This document shows positions 1,659-33,119 of a stretch of 64,000 nt of DNA, in pieces (the first letter of the stretch is position 1; every line of letters starts with the position of its first letter). Below the pieces are notes generated by a model. That model was not told the DNA's origin, did no database searches, and was given only the letters and a program-made list of their open reading frames with translations. Source of the DNA: an uncultured Dehalococcoidia bacterium (lineage in GTDB: Bacteria > Chloroflexota > Dehalococcoidia > DSTF01 > RBG-16-68-14); assembly GCA_964406605.1 (NCBI GenBank), contig CAYOSF010000014.1, forward strand, positions 5,095 to 69,094, in the 5' to 3' direction. Position numbers and translations under genes: made by a program.

Positions 1659-2711
1659 TCAGACGCCGATCTCTACGACGATCCGCTCGGGGTCTCCCTC
1701 CTTCGTCCGCAGCAGCTCCAGGCCCGCTGCCACCTCATCGAGGCGGAGCCGATGTGAGATGGACGCACCGATGTCGATCTTGCCTTCCGCCTCGAGTCGC
1801 AGGACTTCGGCCAGGTCATCCACATGCGACGCGAAGCTTCCGAGCACGCTGAGCCCGCGCAGCCCAAAGGCGACCAGTGGCAGATCGATGCGCGGCGGCT
1901 GCATGCAGACACCAACCAGGACCAGCCTGCCGCTGGGGGCCAACGCGCTGACCGCGCTGGCGACCACCTCTGGCCTGCCGACGCATTCGAGCGCAAGGTC
2001 GGCGCCACCGCCTGTCGTCTCCTGTACGAGCGCCGCCGTATCCTCTCCCGGCACGGCGAGCACCGTGTCCGTCGCGCCACGCGCCGAGGCCCGTTTCAGC
2101 GCCGTCTCGGAGACGTCCACCGCCACCACCTGGGCGGCGCCCAGAACCGCCGCGAGACCCACCGCCTGGCTGCCGAGCCCTCCCACGCCGAAGACGGCGA
2201 CCCGGTCCCTGGGCGTGAGCCCGCCCCGACAGGTGAGCGCGTGGTAGGGCGTCGCCACACAGTCGGTCGCGACAGCCGCCGCCTCGAGCGACACAGCGTC
2301 CGGCACCCTCACGAGACAGTCGCTGGGCACCCGAATGGCCTCGGCGAACGCTCCATCGATGTGCAGGCCCGGCGCCCGGATCGACGCACAGCTCATGGGG
2401 TGTCCTGAAAGACAGTCTCGACACGTTCCACAGCCGCTCCCGAGATGGAGCGCCACGCGGTCCCCCGGCTCCCAATCCGCTACCCCCGGGCCGACCGATT
2501 CGATCACGCCTGCGGGCTCGTGTCCCATCGTGATGGGCATGGTCGGGAGCGGCACGTCTTCCATGAAGTGCAGATCCGAGCCACAGATCCCGCAGGCGGC
2601 CACCCGGACGACGACTTCGCCGCGACCGGGCTCGGGATAGGGAACCTCCTCTATTCGCACCGGCTTTCCGATGCCGTGGAGGCGTGCCGCAAGCATGGTC
2701 CGGCCGCTCAA
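1659..2711 (-). CDS. Zn-dependent alcohol dehydrogenase (MDR family)
   Basis: CGICGSDLH, GHE, structural Zn CGTCRDC..C, GVGGLG Rossmann motif. TTG start overlaps the upstream TGA; alternative ATG at 2696. Confidence 0.93.
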   Translation of the reverse strand: MSGRTMLAARLHGIGKPVRIEEVPYPEPGRGEVVVRVAACGICGSDLHFMEDVPLPTMPITMGHEPAGVIESVGPGVADWEPGDRVALHLGSGCGTCRDCLSGHPMSCASIRAPGLHIDGAFAEAIRVPSDCLVRVPDAVSLEAAAVATDCVATPYHALTCRGGLTPRDRVAVFGVGGLGSQAVGLAAVLGAAQVVAVDVSETALKRASARGATDTVLAVPGEDTAALVQETTGGGADLALECVGRPEVVASAVSALAPSGRLVLVGVCMQPPRIDLPLVAFGLRGLSVLGSFASHVDDLAEVLRLEAEGKIDIGASISHRLRLDEVAAGLELLRTKEGDPERIVVEIGV

Positions 2712-3445
2712 GCTACCTGCTCCTTCCGCGTGATCCGCTTCAGCACCTCGCCCGCGGGGATTGTGTTATCGGAGAGCATCACGATCATGGGGCCCTCGGT
2801 GTCGGGCACCAGGTCGGCGATGGGATCGAGGTCGGAGGGCTCACAGCGCACCGTTGCCCGGCCTACCTCCTGCTCGCGCGGAACGATCTCGATCTGGGTC
2901 TTCGTGATCTCCTCGATCGCGATGCCGCCAGCCGGGTCCGGGATCAGCTTGTAGTTGATCGCCGGGGCGCCAGCCGCCGGGCCTCGTGCAGCAGCCCCCT
3001 CGCCGGGCATCGGCCCCTGGACCGTGCCCTCAACCGTCAGGATCGTCTTGCCCCAGCGGGTCACCGATCCGTGGACGCGGTCGCCTTCGCGCTCCCACTC
3101 GACCTGCGCCAGCTTCTTGGGGAACCCAGCGATCTCGCGACCGGGGATCAGCGCCTCGTCCGTCGTCACGTAAATGTAGGGCACGTAGTTGCCCAGCGTG
3201 CCATCGACGCGAACGGGCACCAGCACGACGAGCTCCTTGAACGGGTGCGCGAACTCTGTTTGCGGGTAGCTGAGCAGCGTGATCAACCCCGACCCGTCGG
3301 CGGGCTCCATGCCCGGTGGCAGAATGCGCGCCACCGCTCCGGAACGCGGCGCGAACGGGAAGACGGCCATCCGCACCCCCTGCCACTTGTGAGGCAGCTC
3401 GGGGAAGACGGGCGCGGACCAGGGCATGCTGATGGGCTGAGTCAT
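2708..3445 (-). CDS. Acetoacetate decarboxylase family protein
   Basis: LPPGMEP, YVPYIYVTTDEALIPGREIAGFPKKLA (Schiff-base Lys motif) and INYKLIPD. Confidence 0.88.
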   Translation of the reverse strand: MTQPISMPWSAPVFPELPHKWQGVRMAVFPFAPRSGAVARILPPGMEPADGSGLITLLSYPQTEFAHPFKELVVLVPVRVDGTLGNYVPYIYVTTDEALIPGREIAGFPKKLAQVEWEREGDRVHGSVTRWGKTILTVEGTVQGPMPGEGAAARGPAAGAPAINYKLIPDPAGGIAIEEITKTQIEIVPREQEVGRATVRCEPSDLDPIADLVPDTEGPMIVMLSDNTIPAGEVLKRITRKEQVA

Positions 3446-3540
3446 GGATCATCCTCCTCGGACGGCTCGATGGCGACGCCTCCAGATGGGCTATCGCCAT
3501 GGCATTCCTCTCCCTCCACAGGCGATCTGCGTCGAGGAAA

Positions 3541-5100
3541 CTAGACGTTGTGGGCTTCGCGGTCCCAGGTGTTGGGACCCACTCCGTCGCCTTTCAGGCT
3601 GCTCTTCTGGACGCGATGAGTTCCCGTCTTCGGCAATGCGTCGCGGAACTCGATGTAGCGGGGAACCATGAACCGAGCCATCCGCTCCTCGCAGTGACGG
3701 ATCAGGTCCTCTGGCGCGAGCGTCTCGCCCTCCTTCAGCACCACGACGGCCATCACGTCGTCCTCACCGAGATCCGAGGGAACTCCGAACACCGCAGATT
3801 CTAGGATCGCTGGGTGGCTGTCGATCCCGCGCTCGACCTCCCAGGAGGAGATGTTCTCACCGCGGCGTCGCAGCGAATCCGTCTTGCGGTCCACGAAATA
3901 GAGATTGCCCTCTTCGTCGGCGTAGACAAGGTCGCCGGTGTGGAACCAGCCGTCTTGGATCTTGGCGTTGCTGGCCTCTTCGTTCTTGTAGTACTCCACA
4001 CGCCGGCGCCTGGCGTCGTCCACCTCGAAGAGGAGCTCACCGGGTTGCCCTGGAGCCACCTCGCGGCCCTGGTCATCGACGATGCGGATCGGGGTGGGCG
4101 GCTTGCCGATCGATCCCTTCGGCGAGTTCCCGATGTTGACGACGCTGAACCCACCGCCGTCGACGGCCGCATATCCCTCGACGATGTGCACCCCGAAGCG
4201 CTTCTCGAACTCGGCCCAGACCGAGGCGGGGCAGGCCGCGCTGATGACCAGGCGTACCGGGTTCTCCGCGTCGTTGGGCCGCTCTGGCTGCTTCATCAGG
4301 ATAGGAATCATGGCCCCCAGCGCGTTGAAGGTTGTGACTCCGTAGCGCCGGATCTCGTCCCAGAAGCGGCTGGCCGAGAAGCGGCGCGAGAGAGCCATCG
4401 GAAAGCCCATGGCGAGTGCCCGCATCGTAGTCAACTGAAGAGCATTGGCGTGGAAGAGCGGCAGACAGGTGTAGAGCACACTGTCGGGGTCCAGCGTCCC
4501 ACCGAGCAGCCGAACGCCGACGACATTCATCGCCCTGTAGCGGCTGACCACACCCTTGGGCGCGCCGGTCGTTCCCGAAGTGTACAGGATCACAGAGATC
4601 GCATCCTCTTCGATCTCTGCCTCGGGGTCCGCATCGGACGCCGCCATCAGCTCGGCGAGCGGCAGCCAGTCTTCCGGCACCGCTGCCTCGGCTGCATCGA
4701 TGATGATCCGGCTCAGCTTGGGGAGCGAGCTGAAAACAGCCTGGACCGCATCGACGTAGTCGGCGTGACAGACCAGAATGGACGAATCTGAGTGATCCAC
4801 CACGTGCCGCAGACCCTCTCCCTTAAGCGCGACATTCACCGGGACGGCATAAGCGCCGAGCTTCTGGACGGCAAAGTACACGAAGAGCCACTCGGGGCAG
4901 TTCGGCATCATGATCGCGACGCCGACGCCCGTCTTCACGCCGAGGGCGGCCAGACCGTTGGCGGCACGGTTCACCTGCCGGTTGAGTTCGGCAAAGCTGA
5001 TGACGCGATCTTCGAAGTAGAGGAAGGGCTTGTCGCCCAAGGCCTTTGCCTGCGCTTCGATGAGCGCTCTGAGCGTCGTGGGTTCGTCTGCCATCGGCAT
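3541..5100 (-). CDS. ATP-dependent acyl-CoA ligase (CaiC-like AMP-binding protein)
   Basis: YTSGTTGAPKG, LPLFHANA, WFHTGDL, DRKTDSLRRRGENIS and LPKTGTHRVQK. Start trimmed to MPMADEP (5100, or 5094). Confidence 0.93.
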   Translation of the reverse strand: MPMADEPTTLRALIEAQAKALGDKPFLYFEDRVISFAELNRQVNRAANGLAALGVKTGVGVAIMMPNCPEWLFVYFAVQKLGAYAVPVNVALKGEGLRHVVDHSDSSILVCHADYVDAVQAVFSSLPKLSRIIIDAAEAAVPEDWLPLAELMAASDADPEAEIEEDAISVILYTSGTTGAPKGVVSRYRAMNVVGVRLLGGTLDPDSVLYTCLPLFHANALQLTTMRALAMGFPMALSRRFSASRFWDEIRRYGVTTFNALGAMIPILMKQPERPNDAENPVRLVISAACPASVWAEFEKRFGVHIVEGYAAVDGGGFSVVNIGNSPKGSIGKPPTPIRIVDDQGREVAPGQPGELLFEVDDARRRRVEYYKNEEASNAKIQDGWFHTGDLVYADEEGNLYFVDRKTDSLRRRGENISSWEVERGIDSHPAILESAVFGVPSDLGEDDVMAVVVLKEGETLAPEDLIRHCEERMARFMVPRYIEFRDALPKTGTHRVQKSSLKGDGVGPNTWDREAHNV

Positions 5101-6375: not shown

Positions 6376-9162
6376 CTAGCGCTCGGCACTCTCCATGCGG
6401 TCCCGCTCGCCCTCGAAGGGCTCACAGGAGACGTTGACGCAGCGGTCGAAAGGCACCGGCTGCCACTCGATGGGACTGTGGTAGAGGTGCCCGTAGTCTC
6501 CCGCCAGGTGCAGCCACTTCACCATGCCGGGCTCGACCTCGTTGGAGCCGTTGCCGCCCGGGAACAGGAAACCCTCGAAACCGTTGTAGACCGTGAGAGC
6601 GTCGGGACGCTGTGCGGGGCTGGTGCGAGCGGGCGCCACGAACTCGCCTACGTCGTTCCAGACCCGCACCAGCGCATCGTCAGCGATCCCGCTGTTGCGT
6701 GCGACGGCATCGTTGATCAGCACGAAGGGCTTGCCGCGATGCGTCTCCATCATCAACGGATTGGTCATGTTCATAGCATGGATGCTCCAGCGGGCGTGGC
6801 CGCCGGAGAGACGGAACGGGTGGTTGCCGCCCATCGAGGGTGGCTCCTTGTGACACGGCAGATCCTCCCCGGCTTCCCGGTACCAGGGGTGGTCGATCAG
6901 GAACTGGGCACGCCGGGTGAGCGTCGGATAAGGGTGACCCAGTTCGATGTGGTTGCGCAACGGTGAGTGCGTCTCGTTTCGCGGGAACGGAGAGGCGTTA
7001 GCCCTCAGCAGGGCGATGAAGGCCCAGTCATTGTAGTGGCTGTAGCCCTTCTCACGGAAGGTCTCGAGCGTGGTTCCAGGCGGCATGTTACCGAAAGCCA
7101 CCGAATCCGCGAGCATTTCCCGGGCGACGCTCTCACCGTCGATGAGCGTTCCCTTGAGCGTGAAGAGGTCCCACAGCTCGTCGTAGCGGCGCCATCCCCC
7201 GCTGCGGTGCTGGAAGCCCTCCAGACCGCGCTCTTTGGCCCGCTCGGCGATCTTCTTCAGGAGCCCACCGAGCGCCTCCCACTCGCCCCGGGACTCTCCG
7301 TAGGGCGGCACCACGGCATGAGACATGGACAGGATGAAGGGCCAGGGCGTCGGCATGCTGAAGGCGGCCTTCTCGTAGTGCTGAGTGGCGGGCAGCACGA
7401 TGTCTGCGTAGAGCGCCGTCTGCGACATGCGGTAGTCCATGCACACGATCTTGGTCAGCTTTGGCCAGAGATTGCGGAGCAGGGCGTTCTTGCCGCCCCG
7501 CGTCCGCCGGAGCGTGTTGCCCCCTACCTCGAGCAGTACACGCGGCGGCTTGGTGGCGGCGATCTCGGCCGCCGGGTCCCAGGCCCTCGACCCCACTGCC
7601 TCCTGATAGTACTGATCGAAGTCGCGCGGCATGCTCGCGTCGCTCCAGTCGCGGTTGTTCCAACGCTCGCGATAGCCGGCGTGCGTGTACCAGAAGAAGG
7701 CCGGCGGTAGCATCATGCCGCTGCCAACGGTGCGCATGATCACGCGGTCTGCCAGTTCACCGGTCAGAGTGGGATCCTGCTCTATCAACTGCTCGCGGAC
7801 AACCTGGGCACCTTTCCGCAGCGCCTTTCCCGCCTCGACACCGGCTTCGGTCTTGGCCATCGCTATCGAGCCGCCGTCGAACATGAACGAACACCAGCTA
7901 CCCACGCCGGCGCCCTTCTTGCCCCAGTTCCCGGTCAGCCCAAAGAGCAGCAGAATGGCCCGGTCCATGAGGTCACCGTGGTAGTACTTGGAGATGCCCA
8001 CCCCGACGCTCAAGCGGGTCTTTCGGGACGCCATCTTGCGCGCGAGCAGCCGAATGGCGTCGGGGTGTGCCTCGCAGATCTCGCTGGCTCGCTCCGGTGT
8101 GTAGTGCGCGTCCAGCATGCGTCGGAGACGCGCGAACAACGGTTCGACGGGGATCCGCCCGGCGTCGAGTGTCTCGACTTCCACTGTTCCCTCTGCAAGG
8201 GGCTCAAAATCCAGCAACAGATTGGCGGGATCGGCCGGAACCACACCCCTTTCGGGATGAAACTGGTAGAAGCGGTCGTCACGCCCATCCCGTTCGACGT
8301 GACCCTGGCGCAGGTACTGCCCGGTGTCGGTGCGGACCAGCAGCGAGAGATCGGTCTGCGAGGCGGCGAAGCTCCAGTCCACCAGTCCCTCGGATATGAC
8401 GACCTGGCAGGCGGCCAGAGCCAGGGCGGCATCGGTGCCGTGGCGCACCGGGATGTGGTAGTCGACATGGCTGTGCGAGGGGCTCACGTCCGTGGAGATC
8501 AGGAAGACTTCCGCGCCTCGGTATCGCGCCTCGGTCATGTAGTGGAACCACGGGACGTTCGTATACGCAGGGTTCGAGTGCCAGATCAGAATGAGATCGG
8601 AGTGGAAGGTGTCGTCGTTGGAATGCGCGAAGGAGGACTTGCCGAAGGTCTGCTGATAGCCGGCGTGGAAGTCATTGATGGTGGCGTTCACGTCCAAGAC
8701 CTGTCCGCCAAGAACGCCCACGAAGCGCGAGCTCGGCCCGGTGGTCACGATCTGGGGACTCAGCTCGTGCACGAGGGACTCGGGGCCGACCTCCTCGATG
8801 GCGTCGACGATGGCGTCGGCAACCTCGGTCAGCGCCGCGTCCCAGGAGATGCGTTCCCAGCGCCCCTCGCCGCGCTCACCGGCGCGGCGCAGCGGGTACT
8901 TGATCCGATCCGGCGCCTCCATCTCCAGACTCCAGGCCAGCCCCTTCTGACAGATCATCGGGTTCATGTCGGGGACGCCGGACTCGACCTGCTCGCGCAC
9001 GCCCGCGGCCTCCTCCCGCACCACCCTGCCATCCTTGACCAGCACGTAGATCGGGCAGTCTCCCGGCACACAGTTCACGCAGTGGGTGCCGAAATGCGCC
9101 TCGTCCCACTCCTGTTCGACACGGCTGCGCTGGCGCTCCTCCGTCCGGTTTGGGCGGCTCAT
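6376..9162 (-). CDS. Type II DMSO-reductase-family molybdoenzyme alpha subunit (EbdA/S25dA-like), paralog 1
   Basis: FS0 motif GTHCVNCVPGDC...NPMICQKG, Mo-ligand region DVNATINDF, KYYHGDL, GNWGKKG, YPTLTRRAQF, GHARWSIH. ATGA overlap with the beta-subunit stop; no twin-Arg leader. Confidence 0.93.
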   Translation of the reverse strand: MSRPNRTEERQRSRVEQEWDEAHFGTHCVNCVPGDCPIYVLVKDGRVVREEAAGVREQVESGVPDMNPMICQKGLAWSLEMEAPDRIKYPLRRAGERGEGRWERISWDAALTEVADAIVDAIEEVGPESLVHELSPQIVTTGPSSRFVGVLGGQVLDVNATINDFHAGYQQTFGKSSFAHSNDDTFHSDLILIWHSNPAYTNVPWFHYMTEARYRGAEVFLISTDVSPSHSHVDYHIPVRHGTDAALALAACQVVISEGLVDWSFAASQTDLSLLVRTDTGQYLRQGHVERDGRDDRFYQFHPERGVVPADPANLLLDFEPLAEGTVEVETLDAGRIPVEPLFARLRRMLDAHYTPERASEICEAHPDAIRLLARKMASRKTRLSVGVGISKYYHGDLMDRAILLLFGLTGNWGKKGAGVGSWCSFMFDGGSIAMAKTEAGVEAGKALRKGAQVVREQLIEQDPTLTGELADRVIMRTVGSGMMLPPAFFWYTHAGYRERWNNRDWSDASMPRDFDQYYQEAVGSRAWDPAAEIAATKPPRVLLEVGGNTLRRTRGGKNALLRNLWPKLTKIVCMDYRMSQTALYADIVLPATQHYEKAAFSMPTPWPFILSMSHAVVPPYGESRGEWEALGGLLKKIAERAKERGLEGFQHRSGGWRRYDELWDLFTLKGTLIDGESVAREMLADSVAFGNMPPGTTLETFREKGYSHYNDWAFIALLRANASPFPRNETHSPLRNHIELGHPYPTLTRRAQFLIDHPWYREAGEDLPCHKEPPSMGGNHPFRLSGGHARWSIHAMNMTNPLMMETHRGKPFVLINDAVARNSGIADDALVRVWNDVGEFVAPARTSPAQRPDALTVYNGFEGFLFPGGNGSNEVEPGMVKWLHLAGDYGHLYHSPIEWQPVPFDRCVNVSCEPFEGERDRMESAER

Positions 9163-22013: not shown

Positions 22014-22384
22014 GCGCAGCCACAGCCTGCCGCCTCCCCAGCGAGCGGTGTGGTCCGGCGATGGCTGGACGCTTCTCCCTGCGGGCCACCAAAGTAAGGG
22101 TGAAAGCACAGCACCGCAGTGCGTGTTCAACGCTCAGCGCATATGAGCGAGCGGGGAAGGAGGCCATCCCGCAACGGCCAGGAGCCGGCACGCTGGGTCC
22201 CAAGCATGTGGCAGGACAGACACAGCAGGTGGTACCGTTCGTGAAAACAGACCCACTCGCCGACACCAAAGGCATCCGCGGAGGAGCCGCGCCGAAGAGA
22301 CACGGACCGCCGGAATGCTGTCAAGGTACGGAGCGATTCGACGCCAGGGGTAGAGACGCCGACACAGGGAGAAGGAGCCCCACG

Positions 22385-23416
22385 GTGGAACAGACGCCCT
22401 CAGATGTCTTCTTCACGCCGCGAGATGACGGCTACCTAAGGCAGCTCCGAGAGGAGGAGGGCTTCTGGGACGAGCACGAGCAAACGCTGAGTTCCAGGCC
22501 GCCGCCCCCCGCTCTCCAGAGCTACTTCAATGAGCAAATGACCGGGGATCCGAACCGTGAGTGGTTTGAAACGATCGCGGACTACGGTGATTTCCAGCAC
22601 GGTTGCGTGCTCGGGGCCGGACCTGGCTTCGTGGAGACCCACTTGTTGGCCAAGCACCCCCAGCTACACCTGATAATCCGCGACATCAGCCGAGGCGCAC
22701 TCGAACGACTCCACACCCTGCTTGAGCGCGACTTCCCGGGGCGATCGGAAACTCAGCAGATCGACCTCAACTTCGTGGAACTCCCCGCCGACGCGTACGA
22801 TCTCGTCGTCGCTCGGTCGACGATGCACCACATCCTGAATCTCGAGCATCTGGCGTACCAGACAAATCGCAGCCTGACCGCCGATGGCTACTTCTTCATG
22901 CAGGACGTGGTGTGCGAATCTCGCTTCCAGTTCAGCAAAGAGAAGAAGCGCCTCTTCGAAGCGTTCGTCGAGGGGACGTGGGATAGCCACGACTCCAAAC
23001 CGAAGTTCCGCTGGCCGGATCGTGACAATTGGGCCTTCAGTCCGTTCGAATGCGCACGCTCGGATGAGATTCTAGAGATCTGCGGCCGTTACTTGGAGAC
23101 GGTATCAGTGCGGACGGCGGGGGCGCTGGCGACCTCGAACCTGTGGGTCGACCAGCCCGGATTCCTCCCACCCCCGGGAGACAGCCGTGCGCGGGCCCTG
23201 ATACGCGCATTAAGACACGCCGCGTCACGCATGCGGCGCAGAATGCTCGGCCCACGACTTGACGTTGAGCTTGCACGATCTCGGGAGAACCTGCTGTTCA
23301 GCATGGACAGAATCGTCAGCGAAACAGGATACCTGACACCGTTCCTCGCGTTCGCTATCTACCGGCGCCGCGCAGCAGCGCCAGGCCCCGATCTGGGCAA
23401 CGCGGAGCCCCTCTAG
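22385..23416 (+). CDS. Class I SAM-dependent methyltransferase
   Basis: VLGAGPG motif I, DIS, DLNFVELPADAYDLVVARSTMHHI; start after AAGGAG. Confidence 0.8.
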   Translation: MEQTPSDVFFTPRDDGYLRQLREEEGFWDEHEQTLSSRPPPPALQSYFNEQMTGDPNREWFETIADYGDFQHGCVLGAGPGFVETHLLAKHPQLHLIIRDISRGALERLHTLLERDFPGRSETQQIDLNFVELPADAYDLVVARSTMHHILNLEHLAYQTNRSLTADGYFFMQDVVCESRFQFSKEKKRLFEAFVEGTWDSHDSKPKFRWPDRDNWAFSPFECARSDEILEICGRYLETVSVRTAGALATSNLWVDQPGFLPPPGDSRARALIRALRHAASRMRRRMLGPRLDVELARSRENLLFSMDRIVSETGYLTPFLAFAIYRRRAAAPGPDLGNAEPL

Positions 23417-24937: not shown

Positions 24938-26188
24938 ATGGTCTACGATCTGTCCAAGTCCTACGAGATGCTCGAACGCGCCGCGCGCGTCATCCCTGGC
25001 GGCGTCTACGGCCCGCGGTCGCCGCGCTTTGCCACCTTCGGCGACTTCCCGGTGTTCGCCCGCAGCGCCCGCGGCTGTCGCATCACGGACATCGACGGCA
25101 ACGAGTACATCGACTTCATGTGCGCGTTCGGCCCAATCGTACTCGGCTACAACCATCCCGCGGTGCAGCAGGCGGCGATGGGCCAGGAGGAGCAGGTCAA
25201 CACATCCAGCATCTCGATCGACCGCATGGTCGAGCTGGCGGAGACGCTGATAGCGCGCTTCCCGTTCGCCGGCTGGTCCATGTTCGCCAAGAACGGATCG
25301 GACGTGACCACGCTTGCCACCCGAGTGGCCCGGGCGAACACCGGGCGCATGAAGCTGCTCGTGGCCGCCGAGGCTTATCACGGTGTCGATCCCTGGGCGG
25401 TGCCCGGCGGCGCAGGCGTGCCCCCTGCTCACCGGAGCGAGCGCGACGAGTTCATCTGGAACGACGTGCCGAGCGTCCACGCCGCCTTCGACCGGAACAA
25501 GGGCGACGTCGCGGCGGTGATGATCTGCCCGCTCAAGCATGACGCGACCGAAGCCGTCGAGGACCCTTCCCAGGAGTTCCTCGCGGCGATCAACGAGCGC
25601 GTTGCAGGAGAGAGCGCCCTGTTGATCATCGACGACGTCCGCTGCGGCTTCCGCCTGCATCCGTCGGGCGCGTCGCACCTTCGATACGGCTTGGAGCCCG
25701 ACGTGGTCTGCTTCGGTAAGGCGATCGCCAACGGCCATCCCATCTCGGTGCTGGTCGGCCGCGAGGACCTGCGCGAGACGGCCAAATCGCTCTTCTTCAG
25801 CGCCACGCACTTCTTCGCCGCCGCGCCCATGGCCGCTGCCCTAGCGACGATGGCGGCCTATGACGCCGAGGGCGCGTTCGAACAGATGCGGAGCGCCGGC
25901 CGCACGCTCCGGGAAGGGATCAGCGGGGCCGCGGCGAAGGCGGGCGTCGGCATCCGCTACACCGGCCCGGACACAATGCCCTACCTGGTCTTCGAGGACG
26001 ACCCGAAGTTGAGCCGCGTTCGTCGCTTCTCGGGCCTGGCGGCCCGGCGCGGCGTGATCTTCCACCCGCACCACAACTGGTTCCTCTCCGCCGCCCACAC
26101 GCCGGACGACGTCGCGCAGGCCGTGGCCGTCGCGGAGGAGTGCTTCGACCTGGTGGCAAAGGAGATCGCGGCCGGCGAGCTGGAGTAG
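24938..26188 (+). CDS. Class III PLP aminotransferase (GSA-aminomutase-like)
   Basis: IPGGV, DIDGNEYIDFMCAFGPIVLGYNHP, KNGSD, DDVRCGFR, FGKAIANGHP. Confidence 0.9.
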   Translation: MVYDLSKSYEMLERAARVIPGGVYGPRSPRFATFGDFPVFARSARGCRITDIDGNEYIDFMCAFGPIVLGYNHPAVQQAAMGQEEQVNTSSISIDRMVELAETLIARFPFAGWSMFAKNGSDVTTLATRVARANTGRMKLLVAAEAYHGVDPWAVPGGAGVPPAHRSERDEFIWNDVPSVHAAFDRNKGDVAAVMICPLKHDATEAVEDPSQEFLAAINERVAGESALLIIDDVRCGFRLHPSGASHLRYGLEPDVVCFGKAIANGHPISVLVGREDLRETAKSLFFSATHFFAAAPMAAALATMAAYDAEGAFEQMRSAGRTLREGISGAAAKAGVGIRYTGPDTMPYLVFEDDPKLSRVRRFSGLAARRGVIFHPHHNWFLSAAHTPDDVAQAVAVAEECFDLVAKEIAAGELE

Positions 26189-26302
26189 CGGGGTTCCGGC
26201 GCCTGGCACCGCGCTCCACCCGTAGATCGGGAGGGCGCGCGAGGGCCGGGCCTCGAGGTGTCGCGCCACGCCTCAGCGACAACGACCACGCAAGGGCCAA
26301 AG

Positions 26303-26509
26303 ATGGACTGCACCAACGAGATGACCACGAGGCTGGAAGAGGGGCCTCATGGCAACGTCATAGAGGTAACGGTCTTCACGTGTCCGCTGCCGGCACAGCT
26401 CTGCGCCAACAGCGAACCGCACGCGCCACACGATTGGGTGAGCCCGAAAGGGCAGCTAGTGCACTGCGTCGGCGTGCTGGAGGAAGAGGACGACGATGCG
26501 CCCGGGTAG
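26303..26509 (+). CDS. Small Cys/His-rich hypothetical protein (possible Zn finger)
   Basis: CPLPAQLCANSEPHAPHDW...VHCVG with an acidic tail. Confidence 0.5.
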   Translation: MDCTNEMTTRLEEGPHGNVIEVTVFTCPLPAQLCANSEPHAPHDWVSPKGQLVHCVGVLEEEDDDAPG

Positions 26510-26567
26510 CCAGCGTCTAGGCCCACCACCGGCTACCGTGCAGCGCTCGTCGTTGCAGGGAGCGATA

Positions 26568-26771
26568 TCAGGAGGCGGCTCGGCCGGGTAGGCGGCTGCC
26601 GGCTTCCTTGGCCATGCGATCAGCTTCGCCGATCGCATGCGGCGTGTGCGGCCCAGCCCCAGGACCTGACATTGCGGACTGGCCCGCGCGGATCTGCTGC
26701 CGGACGCTCAGAACGGCGTAGGTGAGGGCGTCGAGCGCCTGGATGATGCGCTCGTACTGCTCGTCATTCAT
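26568..26771 (-). CDS. Small hypothetical protein
   Basis: GGAGG SD before MNDEQYERIIQALDALTYAVL, an amphipathic helix. Confidence 0.55.
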   Translation of the reverse strand: MNDEQYERIIQALDALTYAVLSVRQQIRAGQSAMSGPGAGPHTPHAIGEADRMAKEAGSRLPGRAAS

Positions 26772-26883
26772 CGTGCACCTCCCACCAGGTATGTCGGCCA
26801 CAGTGTGGCGTCCCGCCAGGCGTCCACACACCTCGGCCTAAGGCCCGACTCCTGATCGCCCACCCGACCCAGGACCTAAGCCA

Positions 26884-26910
26884 GTACCGGCCGCTCCCGC
26901 ACGGTCCCTT
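26884..26910. repeat. Direct repeat copy 1, duplicating the ABC-F 3' end
   Basis: GTACCGGCCGCTCCCGCACGGTCCCTT; 26/27 identical to 28453-28479. Confidence 0.85.
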
Positions 26911-27018
26911 TCTCTAGGAGGTTCCGCCCAACTCAGTCCGGCTGAGATGAATCCCGGTTTGCTGGCCCTGGGCCGCAGTGGGTAGCATGTCATTGGCGCA
27001 TGTCGGCACCGCGGGATC

Positions 27019-28374
27019 ATGAAACCTGAAGAACCCTCCGAGCCGGATAACTCCCTTTCAGCTGACGCCACCCGCTTGGCCATTCCTATCTCCGCGCGTC
27101 TGACAAGCGACGAGCAGTTCCGCGGATACCTGGAGACCTTGGTCTCCCTCTTGCAGCGCAGCCGCGACTCGCGGAATGACGCTCACGAACTGCTGGGAGT
27201 GCAGGTTGATATGGCGAACTTCCTCCTTTCCAGTCAGGAAGCACAAAAGCGGCTTGAGGCAGAACTGGACCGAACTCCCTCCCACGCATCGCGCGAACGG
27301 AAGGAGTTGAAGGTGCTGATTGGCGTCTGCAAGCGTCTCCAGGGAATCGTTAGGCAGATCGCGGACGGCATAGCGTGGCGTTCACTGGCCTACGACCGAC
27401 CCGTTCTCCACCTCCTCGCCTTGAAGCCACACACAGGTCACATGGATCGATCAACAGCGATCACGGAATTCGCGCAGGCGGAGACGCACGTAGCTAGGAC
27501 CAGCGACCGTGTGGTTCTGAACGACCTGACGAACTTCCTGCGATACGGTGACTTCACGTCGGTGGGCGCTGACGGTGTGAGGATTCATGAAGTGAAGGCT
27601 GGGCGGGGAGCAGCGAAGAGCGGGCGCGCGACCAGGCAGAAGCGGAGGACGGCGGAAGTTCTTGAGTTCATAGAGCGGGGATTCACCAGGACAGAGGAAG
27701 GGTTGCGACGAATAGTCCTCCTTGATACGCAGCCGGTTTCGCATCTAGCGGCCGTAAAGAGCCTCCTTCGGGCTGCGCGGGAAGATGGCGCAGCCGAGGC
27801 GAGACTTAGCGACTGCCTGGCGGTGCAGGTCTTCGAAACCAGCGTGATGGCTGACGAGTTCGACCGCCCAAGCGCGGAGCGTCGAGCCCGGATCCACAAC
27901 CCATTCGAGCACTCGAGGGACGCAAGAGTGTTTGACACTCTCAAGCTGTTCACTCGGTTCACCTGGAACGTTGCGCCGTATTCGGTGTTTCCCATTACGG
28001 CTGACGATTCCCTGGCCATCATGACGGGAAGGTTGTGGTTGATCAGCTACTTCAACCTAGGAAACCTAGTCCGGTGCCTACGGCGACGCAATCTCCTTGT
28101 CAAGCCACCGACAAAGGAAGGATACGCCAACCTGCGAGGTCTGTTGCCTGGACAAATCGCGCGACGCGAACTGGACAACCCCTTGATGGTCTCGCGCGGG
28201 CGGCCACACCCCGTCCTGAAGATCCCCATCGCGTCTCTGACTCGCCTCTTCTATGAGTTCCTGGATGAGGAATCGTTTGCGGATGGCATCGAGGAAGAGC
28301 TAGATCTCCCAGACATCGACGAGCCGACATTTCTTCACACGGCGTTCCGCGCAGAGGCGCAACTCTGGGACTAG
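27019..28374 (+). CDS. Hypothetical protein with coiled coil and PD-(D/E)XK-like motif
   Basis: Long ORF; NDLTNFLRYGDFTSVGADGVRIHEVKAG; more A/T-ending codons than the flanking genes. Confidence 0.65.
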   Translation: MKPEEPSEPDNSLSADATRLAIPISARLTSDEQFRGYLETLVSLLQRSRDSRNDAHELLGVQVDMANFLLSSQEAQKRLEAELDRTPSHASRERKELKVLIGVCKRLQGIVRQIADGIAWRSLAYDRPVLHLLALKPHTGHMDRSTAITEFAQAETHVARTSDRVVLNDLTNFLRYGDFTSVGADGVRIHEVKAGRGAAKSGRATRQKRRTAEVLEFIERGFTRTEEGLRRIVLLDTQPVSHLAAVKSLLRAAREDGAAEARLSDCLAVQVFETSVMADEFDRPSAERRARIHNPFEHSRDARVFDTLKLFTRFTWNVAPYSVFPITADDSLAIMTGRLWLISYFNLGNLVRCLRRRNLLVKPPTKEGYANLRGLLPGQIARRELDNPLMVSRGRPHPVLKIPIASLTRLFYEFLDEESFADGIEEELDLPDIDEPTFLHTAFRAEAQLWD

Positions 28375-28444
28375 AGAACGATGGTCACCACAGACCGGCC
28401 GCGCAAGCAGCGTCTTGGTTGCGCTCCCTGGTCCATCGCGCACC

Positions 28445-30073
28445 TCACACCCGTACCGGCCGCTCACGCACGGTCCCTTCTTCGATATGAAGCGCGCTGG
28501 AGGCGTATGCCTCGACGAAGAAGCGGTCGTGGCTCACCACCAGCACCGTCCCCTCGAACGTCTCCAGCGCCTCCTCAAACGCTTCCCGCGACGCGATATC
28601 CAGGTGGTTCGTCGGCTCGTCGAGGAGCAGCAGGTTGACCCCCTGCAGCGCCAGCTTCGCCAGCGCCAGCCTCGCCCGCTGTCCGAAGCTCAGCTTGGCG
28701 GCCGGCGTGCGCACGTCTGCGGCGGTGAACAGGTAGTGGTGGAGGAAGCGGCGGAGCTCGCCCTCGTCCATCCTCGCAACCGGCCGCAGCGTCTCGACCG
28801 GATTGAGCGTCGGGTCCAGGCCCTCGTGTCCTTGCGCCAAGAGCGCGGGACGCACCCCCGCACCGATCCGGACCCGGCCGGCCTCCGGCCGTAGCTCGCC
28901 TACGATGGCGCGGAGAAGCGTCGTCTTTCCGCTGCCGTTCGGCCCCAGCAGCGCCACCCGCTCGCCGTAGCGCAGGCCGAAGTCGGCGTCCCGAAGGAGC
29001 GTCCGGCCTCCCACGCTCAAACACAGACTCTCGACCGAGAGCACGTCGTCCCCGGAGCGTGCGGCGGCCGGGACCTGCGGCCGGAGACGTGCCTCGCGCT
29101 TCGGGCGCTCCACACGTTCCTCGGAGTCCAGGAACCGCTCCAGCCTGCGTTCGGTCGTCTTCGCGTGGCGGGCGATGCGGGCCGCCCGCTTGCGATAGTG
29201 AAAATGGATGGTGGTGTTCTCGATCCGTTGCGCCCACTGCTTCAACCGCCGGATCTGGTCCCTGATCTGCCGTTCCTGTCTCTGCTGCTGGCCGTATGCC
29301 GCCCGCTGCCTCGCCAGCTCCCGCTCCTTTGCCTCCAGGAACGCCGCGTACGAACCGCCGAAGGAGCGCCAGCCGCCCCCTTCGGGCGCCAGCTCCAGGA
29401 GCGACGTGGGGATCCTCGCGAGAAGAGCGCGGTCGTGCGTGACCAGGACCAGCGCTCCCTTGAAATCGGCGAGCCAGTCCTCGAGCGCCTCGATCCCCTC
29501 CAGATCCAGGTGGTTGGTGGGCTCGTCCAGCAGCAGGACATCCGGCCGTTGCGACAGCAGCCGCGCCAGGCCGAGCCGCGTCTGCTCGCCGCCGCTGAGC
29601 GATGCGACCGGCCGGTCTCGTTCGACCGAGCCGAGTCCCCACTCATGAAGCAGCGGCTCGGTACCCATCTCGATCTTCTTCGCGACTCCGGCCAGCTCGT
29701 CCAGCGCCGAGGCATAGGCCTCCGAGAGCGAAGCCGGCGCGTCCTCCTGCCGCGCGATCAGGCCGGCGAGCCGGTTCACCTCGCACTCCAGTTCGCGCTT
29801 TCGGTCGAGCTCCGGGATGGCCGTATCGAGCCGGAGGTCCGGCTGGTCGTCGTAGCCTTGCGGCAGGTAACCGAGCTGAAGTGAGGGCGGCGACAGCGCC
29901 ACCCGGCCGGCGTCGGGCGTCTCGATCCCCACCACGATCCGAAGCAGCGTGCTCTTGCCGCAGCCGTTTGGGCCGAACACGGCCAGCCGCTCGCCGGCGT
30001 TGACGACGAACGACAGGTCACACAGGACCTCCTTGTCGCCGTACGACTTGCTGATGTTGTGCACCTGCAGCAT
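28445..30073 (-). CDS. ABC-F family ATPase, probable ribosomal protection (ARE) type
   Basis: Two NBDs (GPNGCGKS / GPNGSGKT; LLLDEPTNHLD twice), no TM, long interdomain linker QWAQRIENTTIHFHYRKRAARIARHAK. Confidence 0.92.
   Translation of the reverse strand: MLQVHNISKSYGDKEVLCDLSFVVNAGERLAVFGPNGCGKSTLLRIVVGIETPDAGRVALSPPSLQLGYLPQGYDDQPDLRLDTAIPELDRKRELECEVNRLAGLIARQEDAPASLSEAYASALDELAGVAKKIEMGTEPLLHEWGLGSVERDRPVASLSGGEQTRLGLARLLSQRPDVLLLDEPTNHLDLEGIEALEDWLADFKGALVLVTHDRALLARIPTSLLELAPEGGGWRSFGGSYAAFLEAKERELARQRAAYGQQQRQERQIRDQIRRLKQWAQRIENTTIHFHYRKRAARIARHAKTTERRLERFLDSEERVERPKREARLRPQVPAAARSGDDVLSVESLCLSVGGRTLLRDADFGLRYGERVALLGPNGSGKTTLLRAIVGELRPEAGRVRIGAGVRPALLAQGHEGLDPTLNPVETLRPVARMDEGELRRFLHHYLFTAADVRTPAAKLSFGQRARLALAKLALQGVNLLLLDEPTNHLDIASREAFEEALETFEGTVLVVSHDRFFVEAYASSALHIEEGTVRERPVRV
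28453..28479. repeat. Direct repeat copy 2, inside the ABC-F 3' end
   Basis: GTACCGGCCGCTCACGCACGGTCCCTT, encoding ...GTVRERPV on the minus strand. Confidence 0.85.
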
Positions 30074-30091
30074 GAGACACCTCGAAACGAC

Positions 30092-30119
30092 AAAAGGCCA
30101 CGAGCCTCGCTCGTGGCCT
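30092..30119 (-). terminator. Intrinsic terminator in the ABC-F leader (attenuator)
   Basis: Minus strand AGGCCACGAGC-GAG-GCTCGTGGCCT followed by TTTGTCGTTT, about 20 nt upstream of the ABC-F ATG. Confidence 0.8.
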
Positions 30120-30246
30120 CGGGGCAGTGGCCTGTTTTCGGTTCGTTACGTCCTAGACTCTGGGTCTCCGTAACCGGAGCGGAGCAACACTCTGCATGGC
30201 GCGCCCGCATGGGATACGCCGTCTGCTCCGCTTCTCATTGCCCCGG

Positions 30247-30267
30247 CTACTAGCGCATTGCCTCCTC
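30247..30267 (-). promoter_or_regulatory. Minimal uORF Met-Arg-stop-stop with strong SD
   Basis: Minus strand GAGGAGG-CA-ATG-CGC-TAG-TAG; extended -10 TGcTATCCT at 30297-30289. Confidence 0.6.
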
Positions 30268-30332
30268 GTCCCTACTGTTGTCGGTCTCAGGATAGCACAT
30301 GGAGTCAAGGGGTCAGTGCGGATCGTGGTCCT

Positions 30333-33119
30333 CTACCTCGCCCGCTCCACCTCGACGCGCACGGCGCGCTCGTTGGGGACCGGCTGCCACTCGAACGACC
30401 AATAGCGCAGGTGGCCGTAGCCGCCTGCGAAGCCCAGCCACTTCACCAGGCCCGGCTCCACGTCCTCGGCCCCCTGCCAGCGGGCGAACTGGTACGGCTC
30501 CCAGCCGTTGTACATCACCACCAGCCCCGGCGCGACGCCCGGCGCCAGCCGCGCGTGCACGCGGTACCGGCCGACATCGTTGTGAACGGTGACCGGGTCA
30601 TCGTCCGCTATGCCGCGGGCGACGGCGTCGCCCGGGTTCAGGAACACGAAGGGATGCCCTCGGTGGGTGGCGAGCATCAGCCGGTTCACCTGGTTGGTCG
30701 AGTGGCTGCTCCAGCGGTTGTGGCCGCTGATCAGCCGCAGCGGGTAGTCGCCTCCCTGTTCGGGCGGGGGCTTGTGGCAGGGCAGTTCCTCGCCCGCCTC
30801 CAGGAACCACGGATGCTCGATGTAGAACTGTGCCCGCCGCGACAGCGTCGGGTAAGGCTGTAGTCGCTCGACGTGGTTGCGGAACGGCGTCAGGGTCTCG
30901 TTCGGGGATGGGTCGGCGGCCTGCGTGAGCCCATAGGGCGAGATGCCCCAGGACAGGAATCGCATGAATCCGCGCTCTCGCATGGTCTCCATCGTCGTGC
31001 CGGGCGGCAGGTTACCGGCGACGACCGTGTCGGTCACCATCTCCTCGGCCACCTGCTCGGCGGTGAGGACGGCGCCGCCCTTGCTCAGCGACTGGAACAG
31101 GCCGGCGATGCGACGTGTCTGTCCCGACGCGTCGACGAACTCCTCGATCCCGCGGGCCGCGGCGCGCTCCTCGAGCTTCCGCGCAAGCGCCAGGGCGATC
31201 TCCCACTCGCTCTTCGACTCGCCCGCCGGCGGCACGGCGCGGTCGGAGAAAGTGATCCCCATCGACCGCGGCATCGGCATCTGGAACGACGCTTTCTCGT
31301 AATGCTGCGCCGCCGGCAGCACGACGTCCGAGTGCATCGCCGTAGTGGACATGCGCCAGTCGCCGGTGACGACCAGCTTCAGCTTGGGCCACAACTCCCT
31401 CAGCAGCAGCCGCTGGCCGCCGCGCGTCCGCCGCAGGAAGTTGCCGCCGCACTCAACGAGCACGCGGGGCTCCACGTCCGCCGCGGGCCGGGCCGACGGC
31501 CACCACCCCGACTCTTCGGCCTCCCGCACGTACTCGTCGAACGTCCGCTTCATCGACGGATCGGTCCACCGACGCCAGCGCTCCGCGTGGCCGGTGTGCC
31601 GGTGCCAGAAGAAGGCGGGAGGCGACGAGCCGCCGCCCTGCCCCAGGCGCTGCGACAGCTCGACGGATGCGATCTCGTCCGTCATCGTCGGATCCTCGGC
31701 CCGGATGGCATCGACCATCGCGCGGCGGGCGGCCAGGACTTGGCGGGCCGCCTCGGGGCCGGCGGCGGGCTTCATGCCGAATACGAACGCCCCGTCGAAG
31801 CCGGCCACCGCCCACTGGTGAAAGCCGGTCCCTTTGCGGCCCCAGTTGCCGGTGAGGCCCGCGAGGAGCGCGTAGGAGCGCTGGATCAGGTCGCCGTGGA
31901 AGTACTTGCCGGAGGTCAGTCCCAGCAGGAAATTCGTGCGCCGCGCCGCCACCTTCCTGGCCAGCGATCGCACGACGTCCGGGTGGACGCCGCACAGCTC
32001 GGGCGCGCGCTCCGGCGCGTAGTCCGCCAGCCGCTCGCGGAGCGCCTCGAACACAGGCCGCACCCGCACCGTCGACCCGTCCGCCAGCGTGACGTCCCGT
32101 TCTCCCTCCAGTGCCGGCTCGACTCCGTTCGTATCAAGCGTCCCGCGGGGCGCCTCCACCGGTCTTCCGGTCCGCTCGTCCAGCCAGTAGAGCTGCGCTC
32201 CGCTACCTCCGTCCTGCATGTCCGATGCTCTCAAGTATCGGCCCGTATCGCGGCGCAGGAGCAGCGGCAGATCGGTCTGGCGCAGGACGAACTCGGGGTC
32301 GAACAGCCCCTCGTCCAGCACGACGCGACACAGGCAGAGCGCAAGCGCCGCGTCACAGCCGGCCCGGACGGGCACGTACCGGTCGGCGTGTGTTGCCGAC
32401 GGCGAGCAGTCCGGCGCAATTGTCACCACCTCGCAGCCCTGATAGCGGGCCTCCGCGATGAAGTGGTACTGCGTGATCCAGGTGTAGACGGGGTTGGCGC
32501 AGGCGATAAGAATCAGCTCCGAGTGGAACCAGTCGTCCGCGCTGGCCATCGAGTTGAACTTGCCGAAGGTGAGGTAGAGACCGGGCCCAAAGTCGTTGAT
32601 GTTGGCGTTGACGTCGGTCTGCACCGCTCCCAGGTGCCCGAAGACAGAGCCGAACAACGTGGTCGCCAGGAGGCCGCCTTGGGCCGGCGTCCCCTCGTAG
32701 ATGATGGAATCCGGTCCCGCCTCTTGGAGCGCGTCCAGGAGGCCGTCCGCCACGACACTCAGGGCCTCGTCCCAGGACACCCGCCTCCAGCGGCCACCTC
32801 CCCGCTCTCCATCCCGGAGCAGCGGACACAGCACCCGCTCCGGCGCATCCAGCATCCGGCTCCAGGCGACGCCCTTCTGGCAGCCGCTGGGGTTCATGTC
32901 CGGCACGCCCTCCTCGACCGTGTCGAACACGCCGGACTGCTCCTCGCGGACGACCCGATCGCCCACGATGTACGCCTTGAACGGACACGCCTCCGGGTAG
33001 CAATCGACGCAGTGCGTCACCGAGGCGACGCGCTCCCACTTCCACATGTCGCGGTAGCGATCGAACGTCGTCCGCACGTCGACGGACTTCGATATTCGGG
33101 ATAGCTGTTTCTTGCTCAA
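30333..33119 (-). CDS. Type II DMSO-reductase-family molybdoenzyme alpha subunit (EbdA/S25dA-like), paralog 3, orphan
   Basis: VTHCVDCYPEAC...MNPSGCQKG, DVNANINDF, KYFHGDL, YPTLSRRAQFYIEH, GHNRWSSH. TTG start after GGAGG; no Tat motif. Confidence 0.93.
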   Translation of the reverse strand: MSKKQLSRISKSVDVRTTFDRYRDMWKWERVASVTHCVDCYPEACPFKAYIVGDRVVREEQSGVFDTVEEGVPDMNPSGCQKGVAWSRMLDAPERVLCPLLRDGERGGGRWRRVSWDEALSVVADGLLDALQEAGPDSIIYEGTPAQGGLLATTLFGSVFGHLGAVQTDVNANINDFGPGLYLTFGKFNSMASADDWFHSELILIACANPVYTWITQYHFIAEARYQGCEVVTIAPDCSPSATHADRYVPVRAGCDAALALCLCRVVLDEGLFDPEFVLRQTDLPLLLRRDTGRYLRASDMQDGGSGAQLYWLDERTGRPVEAPRGTLDTNGVEPALEGERDVTLADGSTVRVRPVFEALRERLADYAPERAPELCGVHPDVVRSLARKVAARRTNFLLGLTSGKYFHGDLIQRSYALLAGLTGNWGRKGTGFHQWAVAGFDGAFVFGMKPAAGPEAARQVLAARRAMVDAIRAEDPTMTDEIASVELSQRLGQGGGSSPPAFFWHRHTGHAERWRRWTDPSMKRTFDEYVREAEESGWWPSARPAADVEPRVLVECGGNFLRRTRGGQRLLLRELWPKLKLVVTGDWRMSTTAMHSDVVLPAAQHYEKASFQMPMPRSMGITFSDRAVPPAGESKSEWEIALALARKLEERAAARGIEEFVDASGQTRRIAGLFQSLSKGGAVLTAEQVAEEMVTDTVVAGNLPPGTTMETMRERGFMRFLSWGISPYGLTQAADPSPNETLTPFRNHVERLQPYPTLSRRAQFYIEHPWFLEAGEELPCHKPPPEQGGDYPLRLISGHNRWSSHSTNQVNRLMLATHRGHPFVFLNPGDAVARGIADDDPVTVHNDVGRYRVHARLAPGVAPGLVVMYNGWEPYQFARWQGAEDVEPGLVKWLGFAGGYGHLRYWSFEWQPVPNERAVRVEVERAR

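Follow-up and report, generated by a model that had tools for sequence, protein, structure and literature searches.

A single-gene insertion at the 3' end of an ABC-F gene in a Dehalococcoidia genome carries a member of a large family of probable nucleases

How does a single gene of foreign composition come to stand between two copies of the end of a neighboring gene when no integrase accompanies it? The question is raised by a locus in a 64,000-nucleotide (nt) stretch of DNA, referred to here as the window, from contig CAYOSF010000014.1 (C14) of an uncultured Dehalococcoidia bacterium (GenBank assembly GCA_964406605.1). The genome assembly that contains the window is designated G000. At this locus a gene for a 451-amino-acid (aa) protein (27019-28374, plus strand; the cargo gene) lies beside the 3' end of a gene for an ABC-F protein (28445-30073, minus strand), and a short direct repeat that duplicates the end of the ABC-F gene flanks it on both sides. 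The original prediction had described the locus as a single-gene insertion that duplicates the ABC-F 3' end and lacks an integrase, and the low G+C content, the open reading frame (ORF) content and the Pfam scan reported below support that description. We conclude that a single gene was acquired horizontally and inserted where the ABC-F gene ends, and propose tentatively how it may have arrived.

A repeat search of the window found a direct repeat at 26881-26910 (left copy) and 28450-28479 (right copy, part of the working ABC-F frame) in which 28 of the 30 positions are identical (93%), with the similarity continuing weakly for about 8 bases past the 30-bp core. Within the core, the 27-mers at 26884-26910 and 28453-28479 match at 26 of the 27 positions, and the sole internal mismatch (CGG/CGT) is synonymous for Arg in the minus-strand ABC-F frame, as predicted and as both the repeat search and the frame translation confirmed. 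The repeat scored 25, whereas the best score among 30 shuffled versions of the flanks was 13.5. When up to 3 mismatches were allowed, the 27-mer had 2 forward and 0 reverse matches in the 4,006,322-base assembly, and a reversed control pattern had 0. The repeat is therefore non-random.

Chance similarity or an assembly artefact is an extremely improbable source of this repeat. The assembly is a 29-contig metagenome draft, and the right repeat is bridged by no contig from the other samples of the same study (contigs of runs X2-X5), with 28457-28517 uncovered in X2. On the other hand, the repeat score and the two-copy count just given argue against chance, and the left junction and the insert were reproduced without any difference in contigs assembled independently from two of these samples, X2 and X3, which carry the insert. 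Record 3 of X2 spans 25808-26934 and crosses the left repeat, and record 12 of X3 spans 26886-27053; the contigs of X4 and X5 match merely conserved ABC parts from other organisms. In addition, the exact 13-base runs within the repeat are too short to mislead an assembler at k=31, and an intact conserved cargo ORF together with an in-frame ABC-F end is unlike the product of a chimera.

Between the repeat copies lie 1,539 bp with a G+C content of 0.57-0.61, versus 0.67-0.72 on both sides. The cargo gene is the single credible gene of the insert and the sole ORF there with homologues. To its left is a non-coding end of 108 bp (26911-27018), which forms the leader of the cargo gene; no sigma-70-like site was found in it, and a promoter and terminator scan gave results no better than shuffles. 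To its right is a non-coding end of 75 bp (28375-28449), which provides the current stop codon of the ABC-F gene (TGA, 28445-28447). No terminator-like or Rfam match was found in 28375-28449, and Rfam gave 0 matches across 25500-30500. The insert thus has one ORF that matches no family in Pfam, NCBIfam or PADLOC, and its length is below the 20-kb limit used by Furuta et al. (2010) for inserts free of mobility genes. A methyltransferase domain is absent from it, the nearest ORF with such a domain (22061-23416) lying 3.5 kb outside the repeats.

Pfam detected no integrase in 26140-28479. The genome assembly encodes five tyrosine recombinases (PF00589) on contigs C2, C3, C4 and C5, and none on C14. 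A genome-wide search for the 27-mer near integrases had been proposed as a check; the 27-mer has two copies in total and no third, and the tyrosine recombinases are on other contigs. We also rejected an insertion sequence or transposon, since there is no transposase family by Pfam, there are no terminal inverted repeats and each genome checked has one full copy. An integron cassette was also considered and set aside, with no search aimed at an attC-like element beyond the repeat and structure scans. Neither terminal inverted repeats nor shared end motifs were found, and the inverted-repeat score was no better than shuffles in five of the repeat-flanked units, the window and its counterparts at related loci described below.

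The two copies of the repeat give the ABC-F gene two alternative C-termini, as predicted. The gene encodes a 542-aa ribosomal-protection-like protein with two ABC_tran domains and an ABC_tran_Xtn domain in Pfam, and its product matches NCBIfam NF000355 ('ribosomal protection-like ABC-F family protein') with 406 bits versus a cut-off of 380. As at an attachment (att) site of an integrative element, the repeat duplicates the 3' end of its target and the ABC-F gene is intact. The right copy holds about 12 final codons of the gene, with the terminal RV-TGA (28445-28453) at or beyond the repeat edge, and reads EEGTVRERPVRV-stop in the ABC-F frame. The left copy reads EKGTVRERPVLA-stop in the same frame. 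This displaced 3' end (26876-26911, minus strand; TAG at 26876-26878), which is probably the native one, is severed from the gene and has an in-frame stop 7 codons upstream. The stop codons of both copies are at the same codon position.

Which of the two ends belonged to the gene before the insertion? The nearest relative of the ABC-F protein, P0235 in the protein database, is 89% identical and of the same length, and its C-terminus is ...YIEDGTVREQQILA, with an LA end as in the left copy (GTVREQQILA). Because this nearest relative also ends in LA, the left copy probably represents the native end of the gene, displaced by the insert. The listed C-termini of 14 more distant full-length orthologues end in LRV in 6 cases and in LRL, LRP, LRA or LYL in the others, so that the current RV end is more like the wider family. 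Both copies in the window contain ERPV, which is absent from all listed relatives (EQQI in P0235 and EYPL-like in the others). The simplest reading is that the current RV-stop tail arrived with the cassette from the homologous ABC-F end of a close relative: a donor close to the host is suggested because both copies share ERPV, and because the two copies are nearly identical. The ABC-F orthologues in two related genomes (G002 and G034) have 69% amino acid identity and no recognizable synteny with the window. The effect on the host would be that the last two residues of a ribosomal-protection-like ABC-F protein were rewritten and that the gene was cut from its former downstream neighbor.

That former neighbor is the small ORF at 26568-26831 (minus strand), just downstream of the displaced ABC-F end. 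It has native composition and, as judged by eye, a likely start ATG near 26773 behind GGAGGTG, and the Pfam, NCBIfam, PADLOC and PHROG scans gave no family match for it. We conclude that it is the original neighbor of the ABC-F gene, now split off by the insert. We also observed that the final 156 bp of the ABC-F gene (28445-28600) have a G+C content of 0.64 versus 0.71-0.72 in the adjoining 600 bp; this could be a donor-derived tract that extends upstream of the repeat, or a mere gene-end effect. Farther away, 3.5 kb to the left of the insert, the ORF at 22061-23416 encodes 451 aa with class I S-adenosylmethionine-dependent methyltransferase domains and forms a second low-G+C patch (0.58-0.64), and may be another acquired gene.

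The cargo gene had been called an orphan. It does stand as the single gene between the repeats, and it is not an orphan: a word-indexed search returned 92 homologous clusters with identities of at most 57%, all of them free of Pfam domains, and an exhaustive search returned 525 representative clusters (clustered at 50% identity) at E <= 0.001, of which 231 remained at 1e-10 and 34 at 1e-30. Full-length members have about 410-480 aa. The cargo protein itself had no match in Pfam or NCBIfam and 0 PADLOC matches at E <= 1, and its PHROG match was at merely E 0.1. Unnamed clusters were the sole result from the ESM Atlas, and a search of open-access papers and bioRxiv preprints found no description of the family.

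Members of the family were collected at 32 genomic loci which, by the record titles, come from Dehalococcoidia, Chloroflexia, Acidobacteriota, Binatia, Actinomycetota, Gemmatimonadaceae, Patescibacteria, Ignavibacteriales and others. The family is sparsely distributed. Members occur in 4 of 301 sampled genomes of the class, counting G000; G000 and five other genomes have one full copy each, and one of these five adds a distant partial match. No member was found in 72,556 plasmids, 50,697 phage records or a viral contig collection. The G+C content of the gene is below that of both flanks in 24 of the 31 evaluable loci. Neighborhoods are heterogeneous, with housekeeping genes at many loci, and no constant partner gene was found across the 32 loci. 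Clear defence-model matches occur among the neighbors at five of them (L021, L035, L038, L041 and L048), and comprise Argonaute-associated TIR and nuclease genes, a type I restriction system with a KAP NTPase, a fragment of a type III methyltransferase, a helicase similar to MkoA and a type IIG enzyme. The 117 neighbor ORFs of the 32 loci gave 0 Phage_integrase matches.

The family genes and their flanks have separate histories at several loci. In three locus pairs (L095:1546-2945 and L098:4014-5413; L107:1343-2614 and L126:1180-2454; L073:424-1744 and L084:4863-6183), the family ORFs are 87-90% identical in nucleotide sequence in contexts that are otherwise unrelated, even at the protein level, and the similarity stops within about 20 nt of the ORF. 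The reverse is found in three metagenome contigs of the same chromosomal locus (L055, L056 and L060), whose flanks are 93-96% identical and whose family genes are just 65-82% identical; here the sequences diverge from about the end of the upstream gene to about 70 nt past the stop codon. Mobile or fast-evolving accessory genes typically produce both patterns.

What kind of protein does the cargo gene encode? In an alignment of 52 members, Q62, DGIAW at 116-120, R127, T171, D178, E191 and P320 are invariant, and E150, K193 and Q207 are nearly invariant. The resulting motif, E ... D-x12-E-x-K, is the signature of PD-(D/E)xK (restriction-endonuclease-like) nucleases. An AlphaFold model built from the family alignment has a predicted local distance difference test (pLDDT) score of 92 and a predicted template modeling (pTM) score of 0.91. 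The predicted protein consists of a long helical bundle (residues ~17-132), a minimal PD-(D/E)xK-like core (residues ~144-220) that contains E150, D178, E191, K193 and Q207, and an alpha/beta part of no recognized fold (residues 222-451). D178 is placed just before the strand 179-183, and E191-x-K193 just after the strand 186-190. In the PD-(D/E)xK superfamily the catalytic D ... (D/E)-x-K residues are found on strands two and three of the sheet in an alpha-beta-beta-beta-alpha-beta core, with a Glu in the helix ahead of them, and the cargo residues agree with this catalytic signature.

When residues 138-451 of the model were compared with solved structures by VIA-align, restriction-endonuclease-fold chains made up most of the top 50 rows and 8 of the top 10 solved chains, all aligned over residues 138-221. 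The scores were weak, from Z 5.8 down to 3.8 (all <8). Examples are 3fov (Z 5.8, root-mean-square deviation 2.8, 68 residues aligned), the VRR_NUC protein 4qbn (Z 5.5), the Holliday-junction resolvase Hjc 1gef (Z 5.3) and TnsA 1t0f (Z 4.6); the matching chains include RPA0323, the Hjc resolvases, FAN1, NucS, FokI, BsaWI, Vsr and I-Ssp6803I. With the whole cargo protein as the query, the N-terminal helical bundle dominated the matches (Z <= 8). On the basis of the motif and the weak fold similarity, the cargo protein is a probable nuclease. Its most likely role is that of a solitary restriction-like or defence enzyme passed from genome to genome.

The geometry of the window, a unique direct repeat whose copies stand a few tens to hundreds of bases away from either end of the ORF, recurs at at least six other loci of the family. 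At L032, the repeat matches at 31 of 35 positions with a spacing of 1,593 nt. At L116 (41 of 45; spacing 1,498 nt), it consists of 34 nt of the 3' end of a tRNA-Asn gene and 11 nt beyond. The perfect 21-nt repeat at L057 (21/21; spacing 1,845 nt) is the 3' end of a tRNA-Trp gene, and its left copy continues as a degenerate pseudo-tRNA (809-911) in which 54 nt of the tRNA are broken by two insertions. The repeat at L098 (24/27; spacing 1,845 nt) is longer and gapped in the relative L096. The longest repeat, at L024, has 200 nt at 98% identity (4198-4397 and 7261-7460; spacing 3,063 nt), in which 37 nt of tRNA-Arg(TCT) are followed by 163 nt from downstream of the tRNA; the family gene is the sole long ORF of this 3-kb unit, and two contigs of the metagenome-assembled genome (L024 and L029) end or begin there with an overlap that is 99.5% identical. 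At L075, a repeat of 80 nt at 96% (spacing 2,866 nt) encloses two additional small genes. Repeats at three of these loci (L116, L057 and L024) thus include tRNA 3' ends, and two (L024 and L116) extend into the tRNA flank. In the window, L032, L116 and L057 the cargo gene fills the space between the repeats, and in the window and five of the six other units the cargo gene points at a downstream target on the opposite strand.

These repeats are somewhat more frequent around the family than around other genes. The tight configuration, in which both copies are <=450 nt from the ORF and score >=34 bits, was found at 4 of 74 non-redundant family loci (window excluded) and around 6 of 600 random ORFs of 380-520 aa from G000 (Fisher p = 0.017, for a control of raw ORFs from a different genome set). 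A small within-locus control gave flanking repeats in 1 of 61 cases. Within a 2.5-kb reach (E < 1e-5), repeats flank 8 of 76 family loci versus 19 of 400 random ORFs, the latter background consisting of paralogues, dispersed repeats and one real tRNA island. A tRNA or tmRNA gene lies within 300 nt at five non-redundant loci (L024 with the overlapping contig L029, L027, L046, L057 and L116), a frequency not clearly above the expectation for any gene.

Two candidates were set aside in this survey. L020 was not counted as a repeat-flanked unit, its 26-nt repeat being a GTGAAT-type simple repeat, and the identification of the interrupted gene at L032 as an integrase fragment (from a frame at 2955-3428 read by eye) was not confirmed, as Pfam found nothing for the ORF at 2908-3552.

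Other repeat-flanked stretches were seen alongside the family loci. On L115, a control ORF outside the family (2054-3184) is flanked by a 26/27 repeat starting with GGTTCGAA, which is tRNA T-loop-like, and may form an integrase-type unit next to that contig's family gene. On contig C8 of G000, a perfect 57-nt repeat that is tRNA 3' end-like (99982-100038 and 104101-104157) surrounds 4.06 kb with a G+C content of 0.616, versus 0.634 and 0.677 in the left and right 2-kb flanks; this stretch is probably a classical tRNA-integrated islet. A 29-nt palindrome flanks an ORF on C24 (8479-8507 and 10369-10397) and has about 50 matches in the genome, which looks like a dispersed family of the repetitive extragenic palindrome (REP)-like or CRISPR-like type. 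On C4, a perfect 48-nt repeat (216474-216521 and 218994-219041) surrounds two adjacent ORFs of ~391 aa, the second of which is flanked by a further repeat of 74 nt at 89%, and the unit may be a tandem duplication or another repeat-flanked unit.

How, then, could the cassette have entered the ABC-F gene? We tentatively favor a homology-anchored capture from a relative, of the class known as 'insertion with long target duplication', as an explanation that stands at not quite an even chance. By this route a 1,539-bp cassette of foreign composition would have entered the extreme 3' end of the ABC-F gene with no recombinase of its own. The incoming DNA would have come from a close relative in which the cassette already followed the ABC-F gene, and would have brought along that gene's homologous copy of the 11-12 final codons with the RV-stop ending. 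The capture would take one crossover, placed within the shared 3' end or upstream of it, and one join at 26910/26911 that was illegitimate or used a short homology. Recombination inside the ~30-bp homology, with the crossover between the two mismatches, would have fused the imported copy to the body of the gene, and the native LA-stop end would have been displaced by 1.57 kb to persist as the left repeat. Such a capture explains a repeat that has an arbitrary start and ends where the homology between donor and recipient ends. We favor it because the repeat lengths in the family vary tenfold and extend past tRNA ends, because an integrase is never nearby, because the family shows no target fidelity (an ABC-F gene is adjacent in 0 of 112 other family loci), and because the two copies in the window are nearly identical, which implies a closely related donor. 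The original prediction had proposed a minimal non-autonomous cassette or a decayed island with the ABC-F gene as attB, or a capture from a relative. All three options are possible; the lack of target fidelity does not support the ABC-F gene as a dedicated attB, and the imported RV end fits an att-like copy and a homology-facilitated capture alike.

Several observations weigh against this reading. No empty site was found among 41 related genomes with a 5.1-kb query of the locus, no genome of the same genus being among them, and neither an excised circle, an empty site nor a donor was seen in the relatives and contigs examined. Among the joints listed for the contigs from related samples, none links ~26880-26910 to ~28450-28480 and none skips the insert; among the matches listed in a tblastx comparison of two ABC-F-bearing contigs of relatives, those beyond the ABC-F gene are short, of low identity and of the chance type found in high-G+C DNA. 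Because no empty site, donor or circle was seen, we infer the direction and the route of the event. The enrichment of flanking repeats around the family is real but modest, and most family loci (~68 of 76) have no flanking repeat. A 30-bp repeat is at the lower limit used by Furuta et al. to separate long target duplication from site-specific recombination, and these authors demanded both restriction and modification genes, whereas the insert has no methyltransferase. The repeats that include tRNA 3' ends at L116, L057 and L024, together with the constant convergent arrangement of cargo and target, resemble the att sites of classical integrases. Finally, Foldseek gave nothing at E <= 0.001 for the cargo model, a profile sequence search of PDB gave nothing either, and the structural scores that accompany the motif in the nuclease assignment are weak (Z 5.0-5.8).

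The resemblance to att sites leads to an integrase supplied in trans, a possible but rather unlikely alternative. Here the insert would be a non-autonomous minimal integrative element or a stripped island, and a tyrosine or serine integrase encoded elsewhere would have joined an attP-like copy of the ABC-F end, carried on a circular cassette, to attB. Duplication of a target 3' end by an element that restores the gene is the hallmark of this process, an attP that mimics its target would suit both the imported RV-stop tail and the equal stop position, and any of the five tyrosine recombinases of G000 could act. The tight units in which the gene fills the space between the repeats fit as well, as do the repeats that hold 34 nt of tRNA-Asn, 21 nt of tRNA-Trp and 37 nt of tRNA-Arg, in each case from the 3' part, where the cargo gene adjoins the intact tRNA gene and converges with it. 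However, no integrase lies in or beside any of the units, the lack of a third genomic copy of the 27-mer means that no resident element shares the att site, and targets are not kept from locus to locus. Repeat lengths of 21-200 nt that run 163 nt (L024) or 11 nt (L116) past the tRNA are also unlike a fixed core. The regular placement of the cargo gene could instead come from the cargo protein, if the 451-aa nuclease cut the target and drove its own integration and excision as an autonomous single-gene element, a new kind of mobile element. In such a self-integration, the ~450-aa protein would cut a tRNA or protein gene at its 3' end, and a cassette with a mimic of that end would be joined by annealing and repair. 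This is improbable. It would account for a family gene that is the sole gene between repeats in at least five independent units from different phyla and with different targets, for its constant position and orientation relative to the target in five of the six units, and for near-identical ORFs in unrelated contexts; Furuta et al. also propose double-strand breakage by restriction enzymes behind insertions with long target duplication (PMC2853133). On the other hand, a hydrolytic PD-(D/E)xK site alone is incapable of conservative recombination, and the invariant residues include neither a Tyr nor a Ser nucleophile. Nor do the single full copy per genome, the lack of conserved ends or inverted repeats, the many loci with no flanking repeat, the different targets of related proteins, and the absence of the family from plasmids, phages and viral contigs suit a self-mobile element.

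A true target-site duplication, in which the native ABC-F end was broken at staggered positions 30-34 bp apart, the gaps on either side of the inserted fragment were filled and the copies later diverged by two substitutions, would need no imported copy at all. We regard it as quite improbable. The repeat abuts the insert on both sides, long and variable duplications have been reported for restriction genes (PMC2853133), and the left copy with the left flank also yields the native LA-stop reading. Yet the end of the insert would then have to supply Val and an in-frame stop by chance at the exact position of the native stop, and a Leu-to-Arg change would have to recreate the RV end that is common in distant orthologues. 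Two differences in 30 bp would moreover imply an old event, yet the G+C content of the insert is still 8-10 points below that of the host. Homology-anchored capture from a relative, in which the RV-stop end came with the incoming DNA, is the explanation that we retain as the best one.

The locus is a clean example, from an uncultivated high-G+C lineage, of a nuclease gene inserted with no integrase and with the 3' end of its target duplicated, and the mechanism of such insertions has been open since they were described for restriction genes. It also reveals a large cargo family with 525 clusters and a confident structure prediction, which has no model in Pfam, NCBIfam or PADLOC and no solved relative, and which behaves as a mobile single-copy accessory gene that recurs between unique direct repeats at the ends of tRNA and other genes. 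If the cargo protein takes part in its own insertion, it would represent a new kind of DNA-integration activity; otherwise, it is a candidate stand-alone restriction or defence nuclease. A self-integrating nuclease, if true, would be a new enzymatic route of site-directed integration across Chloroflexota, Acidobacteriota and other uncultivated phyla.

How does the insertion compare with known systems? Islands, satellites and cis-mobilizable elements that move by integrases use the 3' ends of tRNA or protein genes. As in these elements, the target 3' end in the window is duplicated and the copy borne by the element completes the gene; related loci use tRNA 3' ends, and the cargo adjoins the intact target. 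Unlike them, the unit is just 1.5 kb, there is no integrase in or beside it or beside the 32 related loci, the family has no fixed repeat length, and the genome has no second element that uses this site. Free-standing homing endonuclease genes of the PD-(D/E)xK type exist, for example that of I-Ssp6803I. The cargo gene is like them a solitary nuclease ORF beside conserved genes, family ORFs with 87-90% identity occur in unrelated contexts with sharp ORF boundaries, and the fold class is weakly shared (2ost_A, Z 3.8). In contrast to the cargo units, homing leaves no direct repeats; the cargo protein is three times larger with extra domains, and it has no known cognate target or intron or intein context. 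Among the defence systems of PADLOC 2.0, the cargo has neither a model match nor a constant defence partner.

Insertion with long target duplication is the closest published class. Nobusato et al. are said to have described it in 2000 for restriction or restriction-modification genes. Furuta, Abe and Kobayashi (2010) report that restriction genes of types I-IV, including solitary type IV enzymes, were inserted in this way, in inserts of deviant G+C content with no mobility gene and between unique, imperfect repeats from 46 bp (44/46) to ~400 bp (PMC2853133). In two cases from H. influenzae, the 46-bp repeat (44/46) shares 15 or 2 bp with the 3' end of a gene, and insertions at tRNA genes with integrases also occur in that study (PMC2853133). 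Their criteria were repeats >30 bp that are unique in the genome, an insert <20 kb with no mobility gene, homologues of restriction and modification genes, and a related genome whose empty site has a single repeat copy; they ascribe the events to something that restriction enzymes have in common, for example double-strand breakage, and call release and reinfection unproven (PMC2853133). The insertion in the window is similar in its nuclease-type gene, its deviant G+C content, its lack of a transposase or integrase and its unique imperfect repeat that overlaps the 3' end of a neighboring gene, and the repeat length likewise varies from case to case in the family (21-200 nt). It is unlike that class in its repeat of 27-34 bp, at the lower limit of 30 bp, in its lack of a methyltransferase, in a cargo outside the recognized restriction families, and in C-termini that suggest that one copy was imported rather than copied in place.

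Homology-facilitated illegitimate recombination is a route of natural transformation that combines one homologous anchor with one illegitimate join. Neither transformation nor a donor is known for the organism of the window. The likeness is that an anchor in the ABC-F gene and one illegitimate join would give a repeat with an arbitrary start that ends at the stop codon, and that the differences between the two copies would equal the divergence between donor and recipient. Taken together, the insertion belongs to a known but mechanistically unexplained kind, and the cargo family is its new part.

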